Part shown: in pieces, positions 1 through 10,970 of the stretch
Layout of the letters: each line of letters starts with the position of its first letter
Position numbering within the stretch: position 1 is the stretch's first letter
Origin: an uncultured bacterium
GTDB lineage: Bacteria > Babelota > Babeliae > Babelales > RVW-14
Direction of reading: 5' to 3'
Assembly (NCBI GenBank): GCA_963759805.1
Contig: CAVXAT010000017.1
Span: 1-10,970 of the forward strand
DNA: 10,970 nt
Program-made: the position numbers and the translations under genes
The notes under the pieces: generated by a model
Told to the model about the DNA's origin: nothing
Database searches by the model: none
Seen by the model: the letters and a program-made list of their open reading frames with translations, nothing else

Positions 1-275
1 TGAGCGATCATGCGCTCTTCACGCTCTTCTTCTTTATCAGCACTTTTTCCCACTTCACGCCCAAGCAAATTTCCAACAAGACCACCAATAACCGCGCCTG
101 TTACCTTATCATGCCTACCGGCAACAGCGGTTCCGACTAATGCACCGGATGCCGCGCCAAATGTTCCGCCAGCAGACTCATTTTTGCCACAGCCAGAGAA
201 AAGCTGGAGCAGTAGCGTTGAAATTACAAACAACGACCCAAATTTAATTACATTACTTTGTCCTAAATTACACAT
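1..275 (-). CDS. Glycine-zipper lipoprotein, 3' end outside the window (not in the supplied ORF track)
   Basis: Manual translation from ATG at 275 is open to the window edge: MCNLGQSNVIKFGSLFVISTLLLQLFSG-CGKNESAGGTFGAASGALVGTAVAGRHDKVTGAVIGGLVGNLLGREVGKSADKEEEREERMIA. It has a hydrophobic signal with a lipobox-like FSG-C and two GxxxG-rich helices. Confidence 0.85.
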   Translation of the reverse strand, partial: MCNLGQSNVIKFGSLFVISTLLLQLFSGCGKNESAGGTFGAASGALVGTAVAGRHDKVTGAVIGGLVGNLLGREVGKSADKEEEREERMIA

Positions 276-309
276 AAAAAACCCTTTGCTGTTATTCAAA
301 GCCATTTTG

Positions 310-753
310 CTATTTTTCGTTAGTACAATTAACTTTGGCAGACTCTACATCTACCTGTTTTATATCTTTTTTTATCTCTTTAATACACGTTGCATCTACT
401 TGTTGTTTTATGTCTTTTTCGGCTTTCTTCTTTTTCTTATGCGCAAGGCAGTTTATTAAAACGCTACCAAGCGTTGTTACTGCACCGTACGCTATCGAAA
501 TCACCCCACCGCCCATGGCGATAGATGCTGCCGTTCCTACAACACCTCCAACAACTGCTCCGACCACGGCTCCCTTTTTCTTGTCCTTTGATAATTTTGC
601 ACCAATTGTGCTACCAATAGAAGTTCCCAAAAGCGTTGTAAAAAAACTTTTACCCTGCTTACTGCAACCCGCAAAAAGTGCGATTATAAAAAAAGGAACA
701 ATAAATTTTCTAATCCTGAACAAAAATCTAAAAATAACCATTATAACCCCCAC
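310..753 (-). CDS. Glycine-zipper-containing putative lipoprotein
   Basis: Basic N-terminus, hydrophobic stretch and lipobox LFAG-C, then LLGTSIGSTIG...GAVVGAVVGGVVG glycine zippers and a Lys-rich tail. Start is GTG 753 or ATG 741. Confidence 0.75.
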   Translation of the reverse strand: MGVIMVIFRFLFRIRKFIVPFFIIALFAGCSKQGKSFFTTLLGTSIGSTIGAKLSKDKKKGAVVGAVVGGVVGTAASIAMGGGVISIAYGAVTTLGSVLINCLAHKKKKKAEKDIKQQVDATCIKEIKKDIKQVDVESAKVNCTNEK

Positions 754-781
754 TTAAATATCAAATCTCTTCTTAAACTCG

Positions 782-883
782 CATCCTTCGACAGGCTCCC
801 AGGCTTCGCCCTTCGTGGCTACGCCGGGCACAGCAGGACGAGCGCCATTAAGTAGGCGCGCTCGTGGTGAGCTTGTCGAACCA
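782..883. repeat. GC-rich intergenic palindromic (REP-like) element with a nested 36-nt hairpin at 799-834; may also terminate or stabilise the bat transcript
   Basis: TTCGACAGGCTC (787-798) pairs with GAGCTTGTCGAA (869-880) with one G-T wobble. ACGAGCG (838-844) pairs with CGCTCGT (859-865). GC content is clearly above the flanks. Confidence 0.7.
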
Positions 884-922
884 TCACCCCTGGGTGACGC
901 GCCGTGTTTCAGAAGAAGTCTA

Positions 923-1726
923 CTAAATAACCTCCACTGCGCTCTGGCTTATCCAGCCAATCTGTCCATTTATTTTAACTTTATAAAACCCATTTGAGGC
1001 CTTCTGGATAATAACCTCTTTGGCCTCGGTCACAAAACTTAAAACCTGATAGTTGGTCCCCGGACCGGATAAAAGCTTTGCGCTAGCAGTTATTACAATC
1101 CCAAACTGCTTACATTCAAAGTTGTATTTACTAACTAACATTAAACCAGAAATAGCTATAAATGTAAACAGCATGGCGGCCAGAAGCCTCTTTCGTAGCC
1201 TAAATAATTTTCGAATGAACACAAAAAGAAATATCCACAGTATCAAAAATACAAACTGAAAGAAAAACAGCGGCGTTGCGCGAATAAATGAGGTTATTTG
1301 AATTTTTAAATTTTTGAAAATTTTAAATACTGCTTCGGGTTTTTTGTCTTTTTCCCCGGCCTTTTGTTCCTTGAGCTTTTCCTTCACCATTTGAATGTTA
1401 TTTAAAAGCTCAGTTCTATCAGATATTCCCCAATATTTTTCGGCTCTACGCCAGTATAAATGAGCAAGCCCAAGCTTATTGAGTTTATAAGCACAATTTC
1501 CCAAATTATAATTCACAACGGCATTCTTATCCTGAATTTTTTTATAAAATTCCATTGCCGATTCGAATTGCCCCTCTTTGTAAAGACTGTTTGCCTTATC
1601 AAAAATCGATTGATAGTTGATCTGTTCTTGCTCTGCATTCAGATAAACAGATAAAAATAGCGATAAGAAAATCATCACTATAAATCTGTAATTAAATCTG
1701 TAATTTTCCAAGCGCCTGTTTTTCAT
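923..1726 (-). CDS. batE: BatE-like protein: signal/TM, TPR, two TM helices, C-terminal SH3-like domain
   Basis: TPR motif FDKANSLYKEGQFESAMEFY...VNYNLGNCAYKLNKLGLAHLYWRRA; two hydrophobic helices; SH3b-like C-terminus (LLSGPGTNY...FYKVKINGQIGWI); AAGGA RBS upstream; directly follows batD. Confidence 0.85.
   Translation of the reverse strand: MKNRRLENYRFNYRFIVMIFLSLFLSVYLNAEQEQINYQSIFDKANSLYKEGQFESAMEFYKKIQDKNAVVNYNLGNCAYKLNKLGLAHLYWRRAEKYWGISDRTELLNNIQMVKEKLKEQKAGEKDKKPEAVFKIFKNLKIQITSFIRATPLFFFQFVFLILWIFLFVFIRKLFRLRKRLLAAMLFTFIAISGLMLVSKYNFECKQFGIVITASAKLLSGPGTNYQVLSFVTEAKEVIIQKASNGFYKVKINGQIGWISQSAVEVI
1681..1704. repeat. Perfect 12-bp tandem duplication (TAAATCTGTAAT x2) in the 5' end of batE
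   Basis: Seen directly; encodes NYRF-NYRF in frame. Confidence 0.85.
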
Positions 1727-1743
1727 TTGTGTATCCTTAATAT

Positions 1744-3600
1744 TTAAGCATCTTGATTGGTTAATAACATTATCCAGTACTGACCTCTTTTAAATAAGTT
1801 ATCTGCCTGCACCGGATTAGTTTTTTGCTCCGTTGTAATAAAATGCAAGCTGGCACACTCATTCAAGTAATCAGTAAACTCGTTAATTTTTTTCTCGTCC
1901 CAACCGAAATCTAAAAGTTTTTGTTCTATAAAATCCATTGTAATTAATTGGGCAGAAACATCAAAACGTACTGCCAACAGGTTTAAAAATAGTGCATAAA
2001 TTTTTTCAATTTTATTTTTACTCTTCAATAATTCAAACTCACTTTGGAATTTTGAAAGACTTGTTTTTTTAGAAAATAGCTTGTATGCCTTGCTTGAAAG
2101 GCAAATGGCAACCAATTTTTTATGTACGTTAAAGATAAAAAATACCGGAAATAAAAGCAAAATCAAATATATCCAGAATGGGATTTGTAAATTATTAGAT
2201 TTACTTGATTTGAACTCTTCTTCAATAAACCCTATGTCCCTGGATATCTGTTTGGAAATTTTTGGCTTGGGTTCCTGTTGATCTAGCTGCTGGTCTAACT
2301 GTTGCCCCGCCGGCAATGTTGCCTTTGCAGCAGGCTCCCCTGCCGGCTGTTTTATGGATAGCATAATCTCGTCTGTTTTTAATGTTTTATAAGATTTGGA
2401 ACTTGTATCAAAATATGTAAATTTTTGCGCCGGAATTTTTATCTCCCCTGCGCTTGAAACCTGAATGACATATTCAAACCTTTTTTTACCCCCAAAATCT
2501 CCCATAGAATAATCCGGCGTAAAGTCATTTTTAGATTCATAATTTTTTATAAAATCGGGCATTGCAAGTTTTGGGGTTGAAATCTGATCAAAATTACCCG
2601 CCCCATCTATCTCTAGTTTCAAAGTGATTGCCTCGTTTACTAGTGCCGACGTTTTATCTACTGACATTGTAAATGTTTTAAATACCCCAATCCCATCTAC
2701 AGATTCATTTGTTTTAGGTAATGGTTTGATATCTATCTTTAGGATATTACTGTGTGATTCTTTTTGTTGAAGTTGCATCTGATCAAAAAAACCACCAAAA
2801 AAATCATCCCCAAATATCCCCCTTGATTTTCGTTTGGTTCTAACCTGGGCTTGATAAACAACTGTAGCGGGATTTATTGTCTTATTTCCGGATTGCAGAG
2901 ATACTAAAACAAATTTTTTCTCAATAATATCAACAAGTTTATTATTTCTAAGCTCTTGGCGATTTTGTTGCTGCCCAAAATCTTTGGAGGAAAATCCTGA
3001 AAAACTCATATGTTCGATGCCGATTTGTGCAACCGGCTCGCTTACCGTTATTTTCAAAGTAACAATAAATGGCTCCCCTTGAAAATATGTTTTTTTATCA
3101 GATAAAAGCTCACAAACAAGATCTTGCTGGTCACCATGCATATCTTTTAAACTTTCACCCGATGCAGTTTTAACTTTTGATGGATCTTGAGGGTGATTTA
3201 TCACCCTGAATTGAACAGTGTTTGACTTTACAACAGTTCCGTTCTTTTCCTCTTGCGCCGGACCTACTGTTAAAGAACCCTCTTGATCAGCAACAACATT
3301 AAGTATGACATTTTGTTCAACTGAAACTTTACCGTTAACAAAGCTTTGGCTATTCATCTGAGATTTTCCAAGCACTTTTAACTTATTCAGTCCCTCAATG
3401 TGCAAAGTCCCCTCGCCTCCATTTTTTACAACCACTTTCAATTGAAATGGCGTTCCCACAAAAACGGTAGGTTGGCCGGTTTTCTCATTTTCCAGCGCTA
3501 AGTTTTGTACATCAACCAACTCCAAGCCCAACTCAGTAGCAATTAACCCTGAAGTCACAGCAAAGATAATCAAAATCGTTTGCATTAATTTTATTTTCAT
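1744..3600 (-). CDS. batD: BatD family protein
   Basis: Signal peptide; beta-rich modules (VFVGTPFQLKVVV, YFQGEPFIVTLKI, VNEAITLKLEIDGAGN, IPAQKFTYFD); a GIFGDDFFGGFF loop; one C-proximal TM helix; operon position after VWA-VWA-TPR. Confidence 0.88.
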   Translation of the reverse strand: MKIKLMQTILIIFAVTSGLIATELGLELVDVQNLALENEKTGQPTVFVGTPFQLKVVVKNGGEGTLHIEGLNKLKVLGKSQMNSQSFVNGKVSVEQNVILNVVADQEGSLTVGPAQEEKNGTVVKSNTVQFRVINHPQDPSKVKTASGESLKDMHGDQQDLVCELLSDKKTYFQGEPFIVTLKITVSEPVAQIGIEHMSFSGFSSKDFGQQQNRQELRNNKLVDIIEKKFVLVSLQSGNKTINPATVVYQAQVRTKRKSRGIFGDDFFGGFFDQMQLQQKESHSNILKIDIKPLPKTNESVDGIGVFKTFTMSVDKTSALVNEAITLKLEIDGAGNFDQISTPKLAMPDFIKNYESKNDFTPDYSMGDFGGKKRFEYVIQVSSAGEIKIPAQKFTYFDTSSKSYKTLKTDEIMLSIKQPAGEPAAKATLPAGQQLDQQLDQQEPKPKISKQISRDIGFIEEEFKSSKSNNLQIPFWIYLILLLFPVFFIFNVHKKLVAICLSSKAYKLFSKKTSLSKFQSEFELLKSKNKIEKIYALFLNLLAVRFDVSAQLITMDFIEQKLLDFGWDEKKINEFTDYLNECASLHFITTEQKTNPVQADNLFKRGQYWIMLLTNQDA

Positions 3601-3610
3601 AATCGAATCC

Positions 3611-4729
3611 TCACCAAGGTTTTTGCCCGGATTGCAATGGTTTTTGGTCTTTGACTTGTCTTTGAATAATTAATTTTTGTAAACTGTCTTCGTCGCTTTG
3701 TAAATTCTCAAGCATCAATCTCATCGATTTTTCTTCGGCAGACTCTTTTTGAGTCTCTTGCCCCAAGGCTTGCTGCGCCTGTGCCTGTTGCGCCGCTTGT
3801 TGCTCAGACCCTTTTGATTGCTGTGATTCTTGCTGCTCACCTGCCTGGGCCTGATTTTGTTCTTTTTCGTGCCCAGAAGACCTATCTTGTTGGTTCTCTT
3901 GCTTTTGTTCTTGCCCAGATTCTTGTTTTTGCTCGCCAGACTGAGATTTATCTTGCTGGCCATTTTGTTTTTGCTGTTGATCCTGTTGGTTTTGTTGATC
4001 TTGCTTAGATTTATCTTTTGATTCCTGATCTTTGGAATCTTTTTGATCTTTCTGGTCTTTTTGATCTTTCTGGTCTTGTTGATTTTTCTGGTCTTGCTGA
4101 TTTTTCTGGTCTTTTTGTTTTTGCTTATCTTGATCGTTTTTTTTGTCCTGATTTTGATCTTTATTTTGCTGATCTTTTTGCTTATCTTGTTTATCTTGAT
4201 CCTTTTTGTCGTCCTTTTTCTGATCCTGTTTTTGTTGCTGCTTTTTCATTAATTTTTCTAGTAACTCTTTTGCTTTTTTTAAGTTTGTCTTTGCGGGTAC
4301 ACCCTCTTTATTTAGCTCTAAAAGACCTTCATAATTTTTCACTGCCTGTTTTGCATTCTCGATGGCAACACCAAGTTTATCCTGCTCTACCTTCGTACTC
4401 TCACTTTCCCAATTCACAGGTAACTGCGACAGTGCATTTTTATAGCAGCTATTTGCAAGATTAAAATAAGAACGTTCTTTCAAGTTCTTGTTTTTGGCAT
4501 TACTAACAGCACGTTCAAAGTTGTTTTTAGCAGAGTCATATTTACGAGTTTGATACAGCGCGACCCCAAGATTGTAGTTAATATATGGATCGTCCGGATT
4601 ACTTATCTGCTCAATTGCCAAACCACGAACGTTTTCTTCCGGCGATTTTTTATCGTAACTACTAAACAATCCCGGATAAATTTTAGGAACAGGAAGCATG
4701 AAAAGCAATGCTATAAATATTTTTTTCAT
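3611..4729 (-). CDS. batC: BatC-like TPR protein with long Gln/Lys/Asp low-complexity linker
   Basis: TPRs (YINYNLGVALYQTRKYDSAKNNFERA; SYFNLANSCYK), AKTNL motif, Q/K/D-rich linker, C-terminal LMLENLQSDE...KPW end typical of BatC; follows batB. Confidence 0.85.
   Translation of the reverse strand: MKKIFIALLFMLPVPKIYPGLFSSYDKKSPEENVRGLAIEQISNPDDPYINYNLGVALYQTRKYDSAKNNFERAVSNAKNKNLKERSYFNLANSCYKNALSQLPVNWESESTKVEQDKLGVAIENAKQAVKNYEGLLELNKEGVPAKTNLKKAKELLEKLMKKQQQKQDQKKDDKKDQDKQDKQKDQQNKDQNQDKKNDQDKQKQKDQKNQQDQKNQQDQKDQKDQKDQKDSKDQESKDKSKQDQQNQQDQQQKQNGQQDKSQSGEQKQESGQEQKQENQQDRSSGHEKEQNQAQAGEQQESQQSKGSEQQAAQQAQAQQALGQETQKESAEEKSMRLMLENLQSDEDSLQKLIIQRQVKDQKPLQSGQKPW
4044..4115. repeat. Four near-identical 18-bp tandem units within the batC linker
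   Basis: TGATCTTTCTGGTCTTTT / TGATCTTTCTGGTCTTGT / TGATTTTTCTGGTCTTGC / TGATTTTTCTGGTCTTTT; encodes QDQKNQ / QKDQKD repeats. Confidence 0.85.
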
Positions 4730-4747
4730 AAAATTTCCAGTTAATTT

Positions 4748-5752
4748 TTAAAGTATAAAGTCAATCAAAAGTAAAGACCAAGCCACCCCCAAGAACCACG
4801 GATACTGATCGTGAAACAGAGAAAACTGTTTGTCCGCAAACTTCTCCTTCTCAAAGCCTTTTACTATTTTCACAAGCTGATCAACATCGCTATCTTGATA
4901 GGTAGCTCGAATGTACACTCCGTTGAGCCCCTGCGTTATCTCTTTTAATTTTTCTTCATTAAGCTTGGTTGTAACGACCTGTCCATTGTCATCTGTCTGA
5001 TGCCCAATCTGTTTTCCAAAATTATCCAATAGTGGAATTGGCGCACCTTCAGGAGTTCCAACCCCAAGGGCAAACAGCCGTATATTGTTACTCGAAGCCA
5101 AACTTCTTATGTTACCCAAATTCGTAGAAAAATCTTCACCGTCCGTTATGATCACAACAAGCTTATTTTTGCGATCCGGAGTTTGCAGGTAAACATTTAT
5201 CGCTTTTTGCAAGGCAGAAGCAATTGAAGTCGTACCGGATGCAATCGTTTCCACATCAACATTTTTCAAATACATCATGAATGCTGCATGGTCAATAGTT
5301 AATGGTGACTGCAAAAAGGCAGATCCGGAAAAAACAATAAGTCCAACCCTGTCCGCCGCTATCTTTGAAACTAAATCTCTGATTTTTAACTTTGCAAATT
5401 CTAATCTGTTAGGCTTTAAATCTTTGGCAAGCATGCTGCGCGACACATCAAGCAGCACCAATAAATCACGCCCTTCCTGCGCTAAATTTTGTTCATTTTT
5501 ACCCCATTGAGGCTGCAATGTTGCCAAAAATATTGCCAAAATTGCAGTACACAGAAAAAAAGTTTTTAACTTTAGCTTAATCTGTGAGAATCCCGGAAAA
5601 ACAGTTGTTTTTTGAGATTCATGATAAAGCTGTAAACTTCTGTTTCTTACTTTGAAATAATTTCTTATTACAAGAACAATAAAAAACAAAAATATGGGAA
5701 AATAAACAATTTTATCGATTCCTGCCCAGTGAATTCCAAAAGTGTTTACCAT
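4748..5752 (-). CDS. batB: BatB-like VWA-domain membrane protein
   Basis: N-terminal TMs, QPQWG, MIDAS DVSRSM, DLKPNRLEFAK, DRVGLIVF, PLTID, GT.IASAL, IITDGED, GVGTPEGAPIP, C-terminal TM. Confidence 0.9.
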   Translation of the reverse strand: MVNTFGIHWAGIDKIVYFPIFLFFIVLVIRNYFKVRNRSLQLYHESQKTTVFPGFSQIKLKLKTFFLCTAILAIFLATLQPQWGKNEQNLAQEGRDLLVLLDVSRSMLAKDLKPNRLEFAKLKIRDLVSKIAADRVGLIVFSGSAFLQSPLTIDHAAFMMYLKNVDVETIASGTTSIASALQKAINVYLQTPDRKNKLVVIITDGEDFSTNLGNIRSLASSNNIRLFALGVGTPEGAPIPLLDNFGKQIGHQTDDNGQVVTTKLNEEKLKEITQGLNGVYIRATYQDSDVDQLVKIVKGFEKEKFADKQFSLFHDQYPWFLGVAWSLLLIDFIL

Positions 5753-5753
5753 A

Positions 5754-6746
5754 TCACAACCCTCGCCAAATCAAGAACCTTAATAGAAATTCTACGCCTA
5801 ACAGAGCCAAAATAATCCAGATAAAAGTCAAAAAGGCTTCATAGTAGTTGTGGAAAAGTTCACTTTCAATCTTTGTTTTTTCAAGTTTATCAATTGTGTC
5901 ATATGCCAAGCGCATCTCTTTTGAATTTCCAGCCTTGAAGAATTTGCCGCCTGTTTTTTGTGCAATATCTTGCAGTAATGGAACATTCAAACCTTGCTCA
6001 GGAACCTGCTGCCACCCGAACATCGGATGGTTAATAAAACCGCCCTTCTCATTGCCTATGCCGATTGTGTAAATTTTTATGTCAAACTGTTTTGCCATCT
6101 CTACGGCAACCTCAGGCTCGATTCGTTCCGGTGGAGTTGGGGATCCATCCGTCAATAGAATGATAATTTTACTCTTGGCTTTTGAGCTACGTAAGCGGTT
6201 GATTGCCGTGGCAAGCCCTGTTCCAAGCCAGGTCCCTCGTTGATCAATATCCCCAATTTGCAGGCTTCCAATAATCTCTTTTAATATTATCTTATCAAGT
6301 GTCAGCGGGCAACGAGATATGGCTTCCATCCCAAAAATCACAACACCAATGGGATCATTTGGCCGTTTTTCAACAAATCTGATGGCCTCGGTTTTTGCAA
6401 CATCAATTCGTGATTTACGTTCTGACAAATCATCAATCAGTTGCATACTATCAGAAACGTCTATAGTCAAAACTATATCAACCCCCTCAACATTTACCTT
6501 TGATCTTTCGTCAACCCACTGCGGCCGCATGATCAAAAACAGTAGACCAACAAGTGTAACTACACGAAGAAAAAATAGTACTTTTTTAAATAAATTTGAT
6601 TTTATAAAATTTGAACCCAAAAAGGCTTTAATAAGAGGATATTTGTAAACAGGTGATTTATAAAATTTGAAACGATACAAAAATGCTAAAATAAGGATTG
6701 GAACAAACAGATAAATCAGTTGAAAATAAGCCAACCTTAAAAACAT
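5754..6746 (-). CDS. batA: BatA-like VWA-domain membrane protein
   Basis: N-terminal TMs, RPQW, EGVDIVLTIDVSDSM (MIDAS), RPNDPIGVVIF, CPLTLD, GLATAINRLRSSKAKSKIIILLTDG, IKIYTIGIG, IAQKTGGKFF, IDKLEKT. Confidence 0.92.
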   Translation of the reverse strand: MFLRLAYFQLIYLFVPILILAFLYRFKFYKSPVYKYPLIKAFLGSNFIKSNLFKKVLFFLRVVTLVGLLFLIMRPQWVDERSKVNVEGVDIVLTIDVSDSMQLIDDLSERKSRIDVAKTEAIRFVEKRPNDPIGVVIFGMEAISRCPLTLDKIILKEIIGSLQIGDIDQRGTWLGTGLATAINRLRSSKAKSKIIILLTDGSPTPPERIEPEVAVEMAKQFDIKIYTIGIGNEKGGFINHPMFGWQQVPEQGLNVPLLQDIAQKTGGKFFKAGNSKEMRLAYDTIDKLEKTKIESELFHNYYEAFLTFIWIILALLGVEFLLRFLIWRGL

Positions 6747-6749
6747 AGT

Positions 6750-7499
6750 CTACTCTTTCCGTAATTTTTCAAGCTCCACTTTGAACCAATCCTGAACATG
6801 CGCTACAAATTCATCACGTGTTGCAAAGGATGAGCTCATGATTGGTTTGCCTATACTAATTTTAGCGACTTGCGTGCCATAATCAAGACAGATACTTTTT
6901 TTGGGCAAAATTTTGTGAAATCCATAAATGGCAATGGGGACCACGGGGCGATCTAATTTTTCTGCAAAAATTGCAAACCCCGGGAAAAAATCATGAATCT
7001 GTCCATCGTCATAACGTCTCCCTTCCGGAAAAAGTACCAAATGACGCTTTTCACCTTTTGTTAATTTTACCGCATCTGAAATAACTTTTTTTAATGAAAT
7101 CGAATTTTCTCGATTAACAATCACATGCATTCTTTTCATGATAAATCCAAAAATTGGAATTTTGGTGTAAGAAATTTTGCTAATCCAAACTTTAGGCTGA
7201 TCTTTTAAAATCACCTCAACCATTGGAATATCTAGGCTGGATGTATGATTCATGATGTAAATTGCCGGATTTTTAGAAAAATAAAGTAGATTTTCTTTTC
7301 CACGTATTTCGTATTTTATCGAATTTAAAAAGAAAAGCAGTCTAGAACATGTGCTCATAAATTTGTGGTAAATTCTATTATCGTAACGATATGACGTTGG
7401 CAACATTGTAATTGGCAGACAAAGCAGTGCCGTTATTGCCATTGTTACTGCACTCAAGGGGTATGTTATGCAGGATCTAATCAGTTTCATTTTCTTCAT
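6750..7499 (-). CDS. plsC: 1-acyl-sn-glycerol-3-phosphate (lysophospholipid) acyltransferase
   Basis: Catalytic NHTSSLD (HX4D), KIPIFG, LFPEGRR, PVVPIAI. The true start is probably ATG 7499 or 7490, overlapping the upstream stop at 7477-7479, rather than 7580 from the ORF track. Confidence 0.88.
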   Translation of the reverse strand: MKKMKLIRSCITYPLSAVTMAITALLCLPITMLPTSYRYDNRIYHKFMSTCSRLLFFLNSIKYEIRGKENLLYFSKNPAIYIMNHTSSLDIPMVEVILKDQPKVWISKISYTKIPIFGFIMKRMHVIVNRENSISLKKVISDAVKLTKGEKRHLVLFPEGRRYDDGQIHDFFPGFAIFAEKLDRPVVPIAIYGFHKILPKKSICLDYGTQVAKISIGKPIMSSSFATRDEFVAHVQDWFKVELEKLRKE

Positions 7500-8322
7500 G
7501 CTCAAAAATACTTTTGCTATAAAACATGTTCCTATTGGTATCGTAAAACAAAAACAAAATACACAGCCAAAAGATTTCAAACATTAATTTTGAGTATTTT
7601 ATAAAAATTAACTTCAACTCTGCAAATCTTAAAGCCCCCGACTGCAAAAGCTTCAATGAACTGTTATTCAAGAGTAACATATCTGTATTTTGTCCCGTAC
7701 AGGCTAAAAACTTCAGCAGATAGTCAAGTCCCAACAACAGCACCAAGAATATTAAAAATACAGGAATATTGTAAAAGATAAGATTTGCAGCCTTTTCTAT
7801 ACTTGTAAGAAAATCCTTAAATCTGCTCGTTGAATCAAGCCAATAAAAAATTATAAGTAGCTCAAAAGTTTGGAATACAATCTTAAATACCCAATGAATT
7901 GTTGGAAATTGAGTTATTCCACATATCACTAACAGTGTCAAAAACAACATTTGAAATATCATAAAAATAAATAAACCGCGTATGTATTTAAAAAACATGC
8001 TCTTTAAATATGTTTTAACATCCGGCTGATCTTCGCGTTTACGTATTAAGATTATGATAGCGCTATAAATTATAAACCAATTTATATCCGTAATTTCAAC
8101 AAAAAATCTAAACCCGGCCCCGGATGTTACATTTTTTGCTACCGCCTCCGCCAAAATTGCCATTAAACAAAGGTCCACAACAAAAAACCAACGCATGGTG
8201 AGAACTGCGTTCTTTATGACATTTAGGTAATTTTTTACTACGCTAACCAATCCGGTTTTAATTCTGCCGGGCAAAAAGGTCGAAAGTGATGTTTTCCAAT
8301 GCAGTAGAACTTGCTCAATCAT
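7477..8322 (-). CDS. Multi-pass membrane protein of unknown function (paralog of 8325-9038)
   Basis: 281-aa ORF with about 6 hydrophobic segments; starts 2 nt after the upstream stop and overlaps the plsC start. Confidence 0.8.
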   Translation of the reverse strand: MIEQVLLHWKTSLSTFLPGRIKTGLVSVVKNYLNVIKNAVLTMRWFFVVDLCLMAILAEAVAKNVTSGAGFRFFVEITDINWFIIYSAIIILIRKREDQPDVKTYLKSMFFKYIRGLFIFMIFQMLFLTLLVICGITQFPTIHWVFKIVFQTFELLIIFYWLDSTSRFKDFLTSIEKAANLIFYNIPVFLIFLVLLLGLDYLLKFLACTGQNTDMLLLNNSSLKLLQSGALRFAELKLIFIKYSKLMFEIFWLCILFLFYDTNRNMFYSKSIFEHEENETD

Positions 8323-8324
8323 GT

Positions 8325-9038
8325 TTATTTTGCTCCGAATATATCAGGGTATGCGTGTTTAAACCTTAGATACAGGATTGATAAAAAAGATAGTTGCATA
8401 AAGCGCAAAACTGTCAAAACCAAATTGGATGTAATCGTTAACGCGATTTCTGATGTAGTTACGTGTCTTACCTCTCCCGGATCAAACAACATTCCCGAGC
8501 TATGTATAAAAAGTATAAAAACAATGCCGGTTGATAGCGTCCATAGCGCCAAATCTATAATTAATGCGGTTGCAGGAAAGTAGAAAAAAAAGATAAATCC
8601 ATTTTTAATTGAATGCATTAGCCCACTAAAATTAACACGTGAATCCAGATAAAACAAAGTGCAAACAATCAAAACCGTACCAATAACAATAAAACTGTAT
8701 GGCAACAACAGCAACAGTGCCAATGGAATAGCTTTGAAATACTGCCAGAAATAGTACATATCCTTACGCTCTGTTGAAGCTCTACTGCAAAGAATGTATG
8801 CAAAGAACACTACGCAATGGGTCAAGTGTATACGTATGGCATTGCAGGTAGTTACATGTGTGCTTGAGATAAAAAGATTTGAGATTTCAACCAATCCCAA
8901 CCACCAAAAGTATTTTAAAAACAGTTTAATCGAATGAACAAAATTGTTCAGCGATGCAAGCACCACTAACTTAAACTGCCCCCAGGCAAAAATGCCAAGG
9001 GATTCTTTCCAATATTTTAAAAATTTCTGGGAATCCAT
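8325..9038 (-). CDS. Multi-pass membrane protein of unknown function (paralog of 7477-8322)
   Basis: Hydrophobic ORF. Start moved to ATG 9038 (MDSQKFLKYWKESL) because of a GGAG RBS just upstream and N-terminal alignment with the neighbour (MIEQVLLHWKTSL). Confidence 0.8.
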   Translation of the reverse strand: MDSQKFLKYWKESLGIFAWGQFKLVVLASLNNFVHSIKLFLKYFWWLGLVEISNLFISSTHVTTCNAIRIHLTHCVVFFAYILCSRASTERKDMYYFWQYFKAIPLALLLLLPYSFIVIGTVLIVCTLFYLDSRVNFSGLMHSIKNGFIFFFYFPATALIIDLALWTLSTGIVFILFIHSSGMLFDPGEVRHVTTSEIALTITSNLVLTVLRFMQLSFLSILYLRFKHAYPDIFGAK

Positions 9039-9091
9039 AGCTCTCCAAAGTAAAAAATTTGTCCGGGATAACCAAACCTGACTACCAGAAT

Positions 9092-9119
9092 AGCTTAAAA
9101 CAAATTGCAGAAATCTCAA
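9092..9119 (-). promoter_or_regulatory. Candidate sigma70 promoter for the minus-strand operon
   Basis: TTGAGA (9119-9114), 16-nt spacer, TAAGCT (9097-9092), about 55 nt upstream of ATG 9038. Motif match only. Confidence 0.4.
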
Positions 9120-9465: not shown

Positions 9466-10248
9466 ATGAATCGTTTTTTTAAAAAATTGCTTACTACTCT
9501 GGCACTACTTTCTTTATGCCAACTCACACTAGAAACAGGGGTTTTAAACGAAATATTTTCAAAAAGTTTGAGCTCCATAATCATTCATCAGCTACAAAAT
9601 ATCAGATACATTTCAAATTAAAAGCTTGCAATAAAAATTCTTTCGATGCAAGAGAGCAAAAACTTTATGCGTATACGAAAAAACTAAGAATAAATTGCAA
9701 ATTAAAATGCCATCTGTTTTTATTTTTCATGCACAAAATTCTGCGCTTGAATACAATGCATTTAACACATACTTGAAAAAAGAACAACCTATCGTCATAA
9801 TGGGAAACGCTTTAACACAAAAATGGATGGCTGGCTGGTTTACAGATCAAGAGATAGAGGCGATTCTTGCACACGAATTATGCCACATAAAATATCATCA
9901 TGCATTAATGCTAGGTTTTTCTAATTTAATTTTAATTAAATCATTATCGCCAAAAAAATTAGCCCTAAAAAAATTAGCCCTATCCGAAAGCTGGAGAAAT
10001 TACGCGGGATATAAAAGCTATAGCAGTCTTGAAAATCCAACTAACTTGATCAGCGCACTTATCAAGTTAGAATGTTTAAACACTAAAAAATCAAAATCTA
10101 AAAAGGCCTTTGAGGCGAACCATCCAATCACGAGAAATGAGACTGTAAAAAAAAGTTTCACTTCCCCGTTAAGCGATCATCCATCAACAGCACACGTATC
10201 GCATATATTAAAAAACAAGCTGCGAGACAAAAACAAGCTGGTAGATAA
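9466..10248 (+). pseudogene. M48 (HtpX/Ste24-like) zinc metallopeptidase, multiply frameshifted (pseudogene or indel-error-ridden sequence)
   Basis: GGGGG RBS, ATG 9466 and signal peptide MNRFFKKLLTTLALLSLC (stop 9619-9621); EQKLYAYTKKL in a second frame; IKMPSVFI..NAF..EIEAILAHELCHIK (HExxH 9872-9886) in a third; RKLEKL and DIKAIAVL in shifted frames; LISALIKL; SDHPST followed by shifted RIAYIKKQ...stop 10246-10248. Confidence 0.75.
9952..9981. repeat. Perfect 15-bp tandem duplication (AAAAAAATTAGCCCT x2)
   Basis: Seen directly; KKLAL-KKLAL in the M48 frame. Confidence 0.85.
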
Positions 10249-10255
10249 AAACAAG
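10211..10255. repeat. Degenerate 18-bp-period repeat (AAAAACAAG core x3) at the 3' end of the M48 gene
   Basis: AAAAACAAGCTGCGAGAC / AAAAACAAGCTGGTAGAT / AAAAACAAG at 10211, 10229, 10247. Confidence 0.7.
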
Positions 10256-10364
10256 ATTGACGAAACGTATTTAAGCAAGTTAATGAATGAGTCAGAGACC
10301 AACACTTCGGAATTTTTGAAACAAGTTCTCGAGTTTAGAGAAGCGCGGGAGAATGCAACAAACT

Positions 10365-10970
10365 TTAGGAGCTTTTGAAGCAAACCCTACACTCAACTTG
10401 ATCCCAATCTGCACATGCCTTGTGCTGTGCAACACTGTCATCAGCTATTTTAATAAACATATCAGCTTGTGCCACATTTTTGCCCGAACTTATCGTTGAA
10501 ACTTTAAGCTCCGCAATCATTTTTTCAATATCACGCCCAGAGAATCCATCAATTTTGTACGCCAATTTTTTAATTAACTCTTGATTAATATCATCGGATA
10601 AAGACATTTTTTGCTCTTTGGTCCGGCCATTTATATTAATCTTAAATGTTCCATTCTTGATGTGTTTATCAAGATAAAGCCCGAGCATTTCCTCGCGCTG
10701 GACAACACCTGGCAGCGGAATCTCTATTTTTTGATCAATTCTGCTCAAAACAGCAGGATCCAGGTCTTCAGGATGATTAGTAGCCAAAATTAACATGTAT
10801 TTTTCTGAGCTGGAATTTGTACGAGAAAGAAAGGCATCAAAACAAAAAGTATAATCAAGCCACGTTTGCCATGTTCAGCCCAATCAAAAATTTCGTGTAA
10901 CTTTTGAATAGCAAGTTGTTCGGAGTACTGCAGCAATAGCAATACGCAACTCAACCAAAGGAACAGGGCA
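10365..10970 (-). pseudogene. AAA+ ATPase (ATAD3-like), 5' end outside the window, disrupted by frameshift/deletion at Walker B
   Basis: Sensor-1/SRH region LILATNHPEDLDPAVLSRIDQKIEIPLPG and lid motif GFSGRDIEK. The same frame extends upstream as FDAFLSRTNSSSEKY; a different frame gives AIQKLHEIFDWAEHGKRGLII. No hhhhDE lies between them. Confidence 0.75.

Follow-up and report, generated by a model that had tools for sequence, protein, structure and literature searches.

ATAD3 is an essential protein of animals, plants and apicomplexans, and human neurological disease has been linked to it (PMC8042885, PMC13249166). Its coiled coils lie outside the inner membrane, in the intermembrane space, and its AAA domain lies in the matrix (PMC13249166). 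ATAD3 occurs in animals, plants and protists and is absent from yeast (PMC3790746), and a 2026 paper reports that apicomplexans, plants and algae have homologues and that fungi have none (PMC13249166). Our literature searches found no paper that combines ATAD3 with Dependentiae, Babeliales, Babela, Chromulinavorax or Vermiphilus, and ATAD3 and 'TM6' co-occurred only in ATAD3 papers whose titles concern other topics. Among the matches listed for ATAD3 and prokaryotes, the titles and the first parts of the abstracts describe no bacterial homologue, and searches for ATAD3 with bacterial homologues or LECA, for DUF3523, for 'ATAD3-like' and for 'ATAD3 homolog' returned no paper on a bacterial family. 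The available portions of three Dependentiae genome papers (PMC6561590, PMC4378268, PMC4776705) do not mention ATAD. The bacterial ATAD3-like family that we describe below is likely a large branch that has not been described in papers.

The stretch of DNA analysed here (hereafter the window; 10,970 nucleotides) is the entire contig C17 of a 1.50 Mb genome (G000) that is assembled in 21 contigs with a GC content of ~35-40% and has an estimated completeness of 88.7%. As the window is a whole contig, the ATPase gene at its right-hand end runs off the contig. A first-pass annotation of this DNA had described a bacterial AAA+ ATPase resembling ATAD3 at this end and had quoted several peptides from it. 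All of these peptides were found on the minus strand, in two frames, and they are far beyond chance, as Pfam recognizes an AAA domain in both parts of the gene and the homologues are 72-88% identical. The contig end contains the following features:

10365..10840, minus strand: C-terminal 158 codons and stop of an ATAD3-like ATPase (ORF listing, translation, Pfam AAA positions 92-131)
10841..10937, minus strand: variant contig tip, matching C13:136-232 with 3 mismatches (pairwise alignment and blastn)
10938..10970, no strand assigned: terminal 33 bases with no match elsewhere in the assembly (blastn-short of 10841-10970 against all 21 contigs)

The segment at 10365..10840 encodes the last part of the AAA core, with sensor 1 (LATN) and the SRH arginine (LSRI), followed by the GFSGR-bearing lid (sensor 2) and the C-terminal helix. 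Its translation, AFLSRTNSSSEKYMLILATNHPEDLDPAVLSRIDQKIEIPLPG...GFSGRDIEKM, runs on the minus strand to a stop codon at 10365-10367 and is in a different frame from KLHEIFDWAEHGKRGLII, the peptide encoded by the tip at 10841..10937. When we used this stretch of the window as a query, a second genomic place was found at the start of contig C13, where bases 1-77 are identical to window positions 10764-10840 over exactly 77 bases. Contig C13 carries the first 386 codons of the ATPase on its minus strand (1158..1, with the ATG at 1158), in a frame that leaves the contig open at ...ATNHPED. Relative to C13, the last 130 bases of the window contain a 58-base gap (C13:78-135 is absent), which causes the change of frame; the missing bases encode DEADSFLRDRKGLDAFRIALV, a stretch comprising Walker B (DEAD) and the helix behind it. 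The frame change is this 58-base gap and not a single-base frameshift.

Joining the frames, as the first-pass annotation had proposed, does produce one open frame of 518 codons that ends at the window's stop, and it is achieved by joining two contigs, C13 and C17, through their overlap. The joined 518-residue protein is identical at 444 of 518 positions (86% overall) to a full-length homologue of 509 aa (P0001). A same-genus genome (G003) has, in this order, a partner gene, an intact 509-aa ATPase and a 78%-identical homologue of the window's ORF at 8325..9119, and this gene order makes C13 and C17 neighbours. A length of 77 bases is a common assembler word size, and an exact 77-base overlap together with a short dead-end branch is the trace that a de Bruijn assembler leaves at a fork. 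In our reading the tip is either artefactual or from a minority haplotype. Bases 10938..10970 are most likely an assembly-graph tip or chimeric sequence. A search of public sequencing runs detected none that contains this DNA, the best share of words being only 0.10.

The first-pass annotation had also suggested inspecting the upstream sequence for an N-terminal coiled-coil or transmembrane region; the corresponding part of the gene lies on C13. The joined protein begins with a hydrophobic leader (residues 1-24), continues with a mostly helical, charged region to residue ~170 (~150 helical residues) and has a second hydrophobic helix at ~175-203. The leader has no basic n-region, so its cleavage is uncertain. 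Behind the second helix follow PSLIQETS (212), Walker A (GPPGTGKT, 281), Walker B (LIILFDE, 336), sensor 1 (LATN, 379), LSRI with the one SRH arginine (392) and GFSGR (459). The AAA module is complete in the joined protein, and the contig-tip variant alone lacks Walker B. Pfam AAA (PF00004) matches the C13 part with an E-value of 5.1e-21 and the window part with 6.9e-06. Pfam found no Peptidase_M41 or other extra domain in the protein or in P0001, and no NCBIfam model passed, the best rows all being far under their cut-offs (FtsH: 55.9 bits vs a cut-off of 600). An AlphaFold model of P0001, built as a monomer from a 24-sequence alignment, has a mean pLDDT of 73, with 86-94 in the AAA half, and places helices at residues 2-21, 40-84, 90-154 and 174-209. 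The best Foldseek matches of this model belong to the classical AAA clade (FtsH, Ycf2-FtsHi, Rpt, p97 and Msp1; 17-25% identity).

With the C13 part of the protein as query, the nearest matches were 12 proteins (P0001-P0012) of 72-88% identity, 11 of them of 504-514 aa and one a 412-aa partial sequence, and more distant members of the family carry the names Dependentiae and Babeliales. The tier that follows these homologues consists of proteins with the architecture PF12037+PF00004 (E 1e-36 to 1e-25); among its members are proteins named as ATAD3 from a mite and a copepod, as well as a nematode protein and a choanoflagellate sequence (P0061 is Salpingoeca). The C13 part is ~28-38% identical to ATAD3. 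Proteins named as other AAA types appear only at 1e-19 and weaker, with CDC48-type proteins from ~1e-15. Automatic JGI labels call these bacterial proteins ATAD3A/B.

Profile comparisons extend this affinity beyond the AAA domain. An hhalign comparison of 24 bacterial with 13 PF12037-type sequences gave a probability of 100 and an E-value of 2e-84 over 365 columns, spanning positions 137-512 of the bacterial profile and 194-563 of the PF12037-type profile, from the pre-membrane helix to the C-terminal helix. The match starts ~60 residues ahead of the membrane helix, and hhalign gave no alignment of the first ~135 residues with the ATAD3 N-terminus. The bacterial family and named ATAD3 have in common a juxtamembrane motif, P-x-L-x-x-E-[ST]-S, ~69-70 residues ahead of Walker A; in the nematode ATAD3 (P0051) PSLVRETS is at 277 and Walker A at 347, and none of the generic AAA rows P0088-P0120 contains the motif. 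The hhalign match aligns the motifs of the two groups. Against the family HMM, PF12037-type ATAD3 proteins reach 289-348 bits, compared with 75-142 bits for generic AAA proteins, among which the genome's own FtsH is counted. Within the genome, the four ATAD3-like genes score 243-771 bits, and in the comparison that puts FtsH at 94-99 bits they score 243-585 bits. In the reverse search, the nematode ATAD3 found the four ATAD3-like genes of this genome at 1.3e-52 to 2.2e-36 and FtsH at 7.5e-9.

The N-terminal ATAD3 model itself, PF12037 (ATAD3_N), was absent from the Pfam matches of the C13 part at E<=0.01 and from those of P0001 at E<=1. In a search of the genome its score was 10.4 bits at the homologous position (C13:514-759) and 16.9 bits for the paralogue on contig C1, against a cut-off of 25. 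Four bacterial-type proteins of 471-615 aa (P0179, P0192, P0255 and P0030) do pass PF12037, through the C-terminal part of the model.

Compared with the described systems, the bacterial protein is like ATAD3 in having one membrane helix followed by P-x-L-[IV]-x-E-[ST]-S at the same distance ahead of Walker A, in FDWA, AFLxRT, the single SRH arginine, GFSGR and the C-terminal helix, in the 365 aligned profile columns, and in a helical or coiled-coil part that lies across the membrane from the AAA domain, an arrangement that is predicted for the bacterial protein. FDWA and AFLxRT, on which the first-pass annotation had relied, are indeed common to the window's family and ATAD3. The bacterial protein differs from ATAD3 in its length (~510 aa vs ~570-630 aa), in a hydrophobic N-terminal leader that stands in place of the ATAD3 N-terminus, with ATAD3_N below threshold, in being coupled translationally with a partner gene that belongs to no known family, and in lying outside the eukaryotic clade. 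With FtsH/AFG3 it has in common a membrane-anchored classical AAA module, and FtsH models and structures top the Foldseek list (E 2.6e-16); however, the family protein has no protease domain, and the genome's own FtsH groups with the outgroups in trees. The likeness to CDC48/p97, Rpt/PAN and Msp1/ATAD1 consists of the AAA fold and motifs (best PDB sequence matches E 1.8e-21, residues 251-385 only) and is confined to the AAA domain, with no common membrane helix or juxtamembrane motif; CDC48, moreover, has two AAA domains. In the stretch that we take to be pore loop 1 from general AAA architecture, the bacterial consensus is SGADFxQF, in which the aromatic is kept, and that of ATAD3 is SGGDVGPMG. 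An aromatic residue in this putative loop is compatible with substrate threading and is no proof of it.

To place the family relative to eukaryotic ATAD3, we built three trees, all from the best domain envelope of each protein. The 46-row set is a subsample of the 96 rows, and a Haematococcus fragment was dropped before all trees. The eukaryote-type rows of the 46-row trees comprise seven named eukaryotes and four proteins classed by strong PF12037 matches; these four, like most bacterial-type rows, were classed by length and Pfam architecture. As the protein search with P0060 listed only stramenopile-like ATAD3, the trees are without Amoebozoa, plants and excavates, and the named eukaryotes are holozoans and stramenopiles only. 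As outgroups we used the FtsH of the genome itself together with five AAA proteins that are CDC48-type or generic, a set without Bcs1, Msp1 or katanin-type proteins. The supports were as follows:

FastTree, 96 rows x 468 columns: family and ATAD3 against generic AAA 100; eukaryote-type rows as one clade 94
IQ-TREE, LG+G4, quick, 46 rows x 437 columns: family and ATAD3 against generic AAA 98; eukaryote-type rows as one clade 100
Careful tree, LG+C20+F+G4 PMSF, 46 rows x 437 columns: family and ATAD3 against generic AAA 100/98; eukaryote-type rows as one clade 100/99

All 29 bacterial-type rows fall outside the eukaryote-type clade, which has a support of 100/99 and occurs in every one of the 200 bootstrap trees. 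The window's protein does not fall inside the eukaryotic ATAD3 clade, as orthology would have it, and forms a clade with P0001, P0012 and P0013 (99/92). In the best tree the eukaryote-type clade lies inside bacterial diversity, beside groups that contain a protein of an Oligoflexales MAG and one of a Chlamydiae MAG, with backbone bootstraps of only 37-79. An arrangement with all bacterial-type rows as one clade, a group named after the tree had been seen, was not rejected (delta lnL 6.3, p-AU 0.199). Forcing the window's clade together with the eukaryote-type rows, a group likewise named after the tree had been seen, was rejected (delta lnL 52.5, p-AU 5.7e-06).

The first-pass annotation had preferred ATAD3 to FtsH, ClpX and MoxR as the relative of this protein, and the best non-family matches, hhalign, the reverse search and the trees agree with this preference. 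The outcome that it had set against its own reading, placement among generic bacterial AAA ATPases, was tested in these trees; the family groups with ATAD3, apart from the FtsH- and CDC48-types. Judged from sequence, the window's gene is a bacterial variant of the ATAD3 kind, with an affinity to ATAD3 at the level of the family and not as an orthologue, and ATAD3 is the family's nearest relative outside bacteria.

The family is widespread. Using a family HMM threshold of E<=1e-45, which was set above the FtsH score, we found matches in 88 of 201 sampled genomes of the phylum, in 79 of the 177 high-quality ones and in all 22 genomes of the window's family. Two to six matches are present in many of the genomes, and some of these lie in tandem. 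A search of 1.84 billion cluster representatives with a threshold of E<=1e-30 returned 3,349 proteins, of which the best 150 were all below 1e-88. A search of genome contigs with the Walker A pattern alone yielded 80 loci of generic AAA type, from Actinomycetota, Xanthomonadales and other groups, and HMM rescoring showed only two-domain ORFs of 790-881 aa without the motif; as these loci are only generic AAA, they carry no taxonomic information on the groups nearest ATAD3. The search for paralogues that the first-pass annotation had suggested revealed three other ATAD3-like genes in the genome, which together with the window's gene are:

C13/C17 joined: the ATAD3-like gene of the window
C1:264412-266091: ATAD3-like paralogue
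C2:183103-184695: ATAD3-like paralogue
C8:9805-11349: ATAD3-like paralogue

We consider it probable, as a joint reading, that positions 10365-10840 (minus strand) are the last third of a 518-codon gene for a membrane-anchored ATPase of a large bacterial family allied to ATAD3, in a bacterium that is likely one of the Babeliales/Dependentiae and protist-associated, and that the break in its frame is most likely a tip or minority variant. Against the second part of this reading one may hold that the gene is truly broken and that the 58-base Walker B deletion is the real state, or a common haplotype, of a decaying paralogue. The tip sequence is present in the assembly, its three substitutions besides the deletion have the look of a separate haplotype and are unlike random read error, and the three other ATAD3-like genes could compensate for a loss; since the 58-base-deleted tip is real assembly sequence with three further mismatches, there may be another haplotype in which the gene is broken. 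We nevertheless find a truly broken gene unlikely, given that an intact version exists on C13 and overlaps the window by exactly 77 bases, as at a typical graph junction, that the tip ends after 130 bases in 33 unmatched bases, that the C-terminal part in the window is intact within a protein of 86% overall identity to full-length homologues, and that both same-genus orthologues are open frames (514 and 520 aa). The most likely cause of the broken frame at the end of the contig is an assembly tip or a minority variant, with the gene itself not dead, and for annotation the apparent pseudogene in the window is a gene split over two contigs. Against the first part stands the idea of a generic bacterial AAA ATPase (FtsH-, CDC48- or MoxR-like) whose ATAD3-like motifs are chance or convergent. 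Pfam and NCBIfam do recognize only a generic AAA domain, and searches of the PDB by sequence and by fold lead to CDC48, FtsH, Rpt and Msp1; the PDB searches could not favour ATAD3, because no ATAD3 entry was among the PDB matches listed. This idea leaves unexplained the homology beyond the AAA domain (membrane helix, P-x-L-x-x-E-[ST]-S, C-terminal helix), the 3-fold gap in bit score between ATAD3 and generic AAA proteins, the agreement of the reciprocal search and the support of 98-100 for the split from the outgroups, and a Peptidase M41 or other extra domain was not found. We give it a negligible probability: hhalign, HMM scores, the reverse search and the tree refute a generic AAA identity as far as sequence evidence can.

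For an ATAD3-allied protein in such a genome, the first-pass annotation had offered host-symbiont transfer or, alternatively, a bacterial lineage informative about the origin of ATAD3. A recent transfer of eukaryotic ATAD3 from a protist host into the symbiont lineage would suit the life of Dependentiae inside protists, as reported in two genome papers (PMC6561590, PMC4378268), and would suit the fact that the nearest non-bacterial matches are ATAD3. We consider it very improbable, as the single eukaryote-type clade (100/99) leaves out all 29 bacterial-type rows, joining the window's clade to the eukaryote-type rows costs 52.5 lnL (p-AU 5.7e-06), identity to ATAD3 is only ~28-38% with no ATAD3_N head common to both, and the family is deep and wide in the phylum (88/201 genomes, 22/22 in the window's family, often with several paralogues). 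This judgement covers the holozoans and stramenopiles sampled, and supergroups such as Amoebozoa and Discoba lie outside the comparison. As an exclusive grouping with eukaryotes was rejected, recent host-to-symbiont transfer is not supported. The other suggestion, a lineage informative on ATAD3 origin, fits the data. ATAD3 and the bacterial family share an ancestor; as to the direction of descent, the best tree, with its weak backbone, favours an origin of ATAD3 within bacterial diversity. It is possible, if somewhat doubtful, that mitochondrial ATAD3 descends from this bacterial family, a diderm, envelope-spanning, partner-coupled AAA+ machine having been taken over by an early eukaryote. If so, the bacterial machine became the ATPase at the contacts of the mitochondrial inner membrane with the outer one, Dependentiae and other lineages (Oligoflexales and Chlamydiae MAGs) still carry the envelope machine, and the bacterial protein with its partner would be a working prototype for studies of the ATAD3 mechanism. 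A large bacterial family with the membrane helix, motif and AAA module of ATAD3, an orientation predicted to be alike and a conserved partner gene offers a concrete hypothesis for the origin of ATAD3, and its simpler proteins could serve structural and biochemical work.

The proposed machine includes a partner, encoded directly ahead of the ATPase:

C13:1158-2438: partner gene, a 426-codon ORF upstream of the ATPase and co-directional with it

The stop codon of the partner and the ATG of the ATPase overlap as TGATG. Using single-pass phmmer (1225 ORFs), we found homologous ORFs in 5 of 5 loci of relatives and before the genome's own C1 paralogue (E 1e-192 to 6e-06), and no other ORF of the genome was hit. 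The partner protein has hydrophobic ends; it has no Pfam or NCBIfam match, and the ESM Atlas gave no usable match. The paralogues on C2 and C8 are without an upstream partner, and two co-directional ORFs follow them instead.

The conserved, translationally coupled partner suggests a two-component, ATP-driven envelope machine. In the mechanism that we propose, the leader would export the helical N-terminal part across the inner membrane to the periplasm, the second helix would fix the ATPase to the inner membrane and keep the AAA ring, which is probably hexameric, on the cytoplasmic side, and the ATPase and its co-translated partner would act on the cell envelope through ATP hydrolysis. Equating the periplasm with the intermembrane space, we infer an orientation of the ATPase that is predicted to equal that of ATAD3.

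Several observations concern the surroundings of these genes. The C2 and C8 paralogues are near-identical from the membrane helix to the C-terminus, and their N-terminal parts, which are predicted to be periplasmic, are unrelated, as if swapped. Two genes upstream of the C1 paralogue, a 523-aa ORF (G000:C1:261523-263094) has a C-terminal tail (DSVKGEPAKLVRV...) almost equal to that of the C1 ATPase, and the family HMM does not detect it. On C13 (locus L009), a 134-aa ORF at 2575-2979 (minus strand) lies immediately upstream of the partner gene. Its product combines a leader and a glycine-rich stretch with a charged helical middle and a hydrophobic helix at the C-terminus, and Pfam gave it no match that exceeds the family cut-off.

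Next to the ATPase stop, which it overlaps by 14 bases, the window contains on the plus strand (9695-10378) a 227-aa ORF with HELCH (HExxH). It part-matches HtpX/Peptidase_M48 (Pfam E 5.7e-06; NCBIfam HtpX 36.6 bits vs a cut-off of 355). In the same-genus locus L004, the ATPase and the gene that follows it are ~190 bases apart (938-1128), and this interval contains no ORF of at least 90 aa. The window's ORF looks like an HtpX-like remnant or insertion. Two multi-pass membrane ORFs of 281 and 264 aa lie at 7477-9119 on the minus strand and belong to no Pfam family; the 264-aa ORF (8325..9119) is 78% identical to the ATPase-adjoining gene in the same-genus genome. No Rfam match was found in the window, and a scan of the window for promoters and terminators gave nothing above shuffles. 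Further along, a Bat-like (aerotolerance-type) gene row occupies 923-6746 on the minus strand and is preceded by an acyltransferase gene:

6750-7580: acyltransferase, preceding the row
5754-6746, minus strand: VWA protein
4748-5752, minus strand: VWA protein
3611-4729, minus strand: TPR protein
1744-3600, minus strand: BatD
923-1726, minus strand: TPR+SH3 protein

The TPR protein at 3611-4729 contains a long K/D/Q-rich low-complexity stretch, with imperfect tandem repeats of 9, 18, 36 and 66 bases at 4025-4246. At the other end of the window, 3-753 on the minus strand encodes two adjacent small glycine-zipper ORFs (Rick_17kDa_Anti / YMGG-like) that resemble membrane proteins or lipoproteins.
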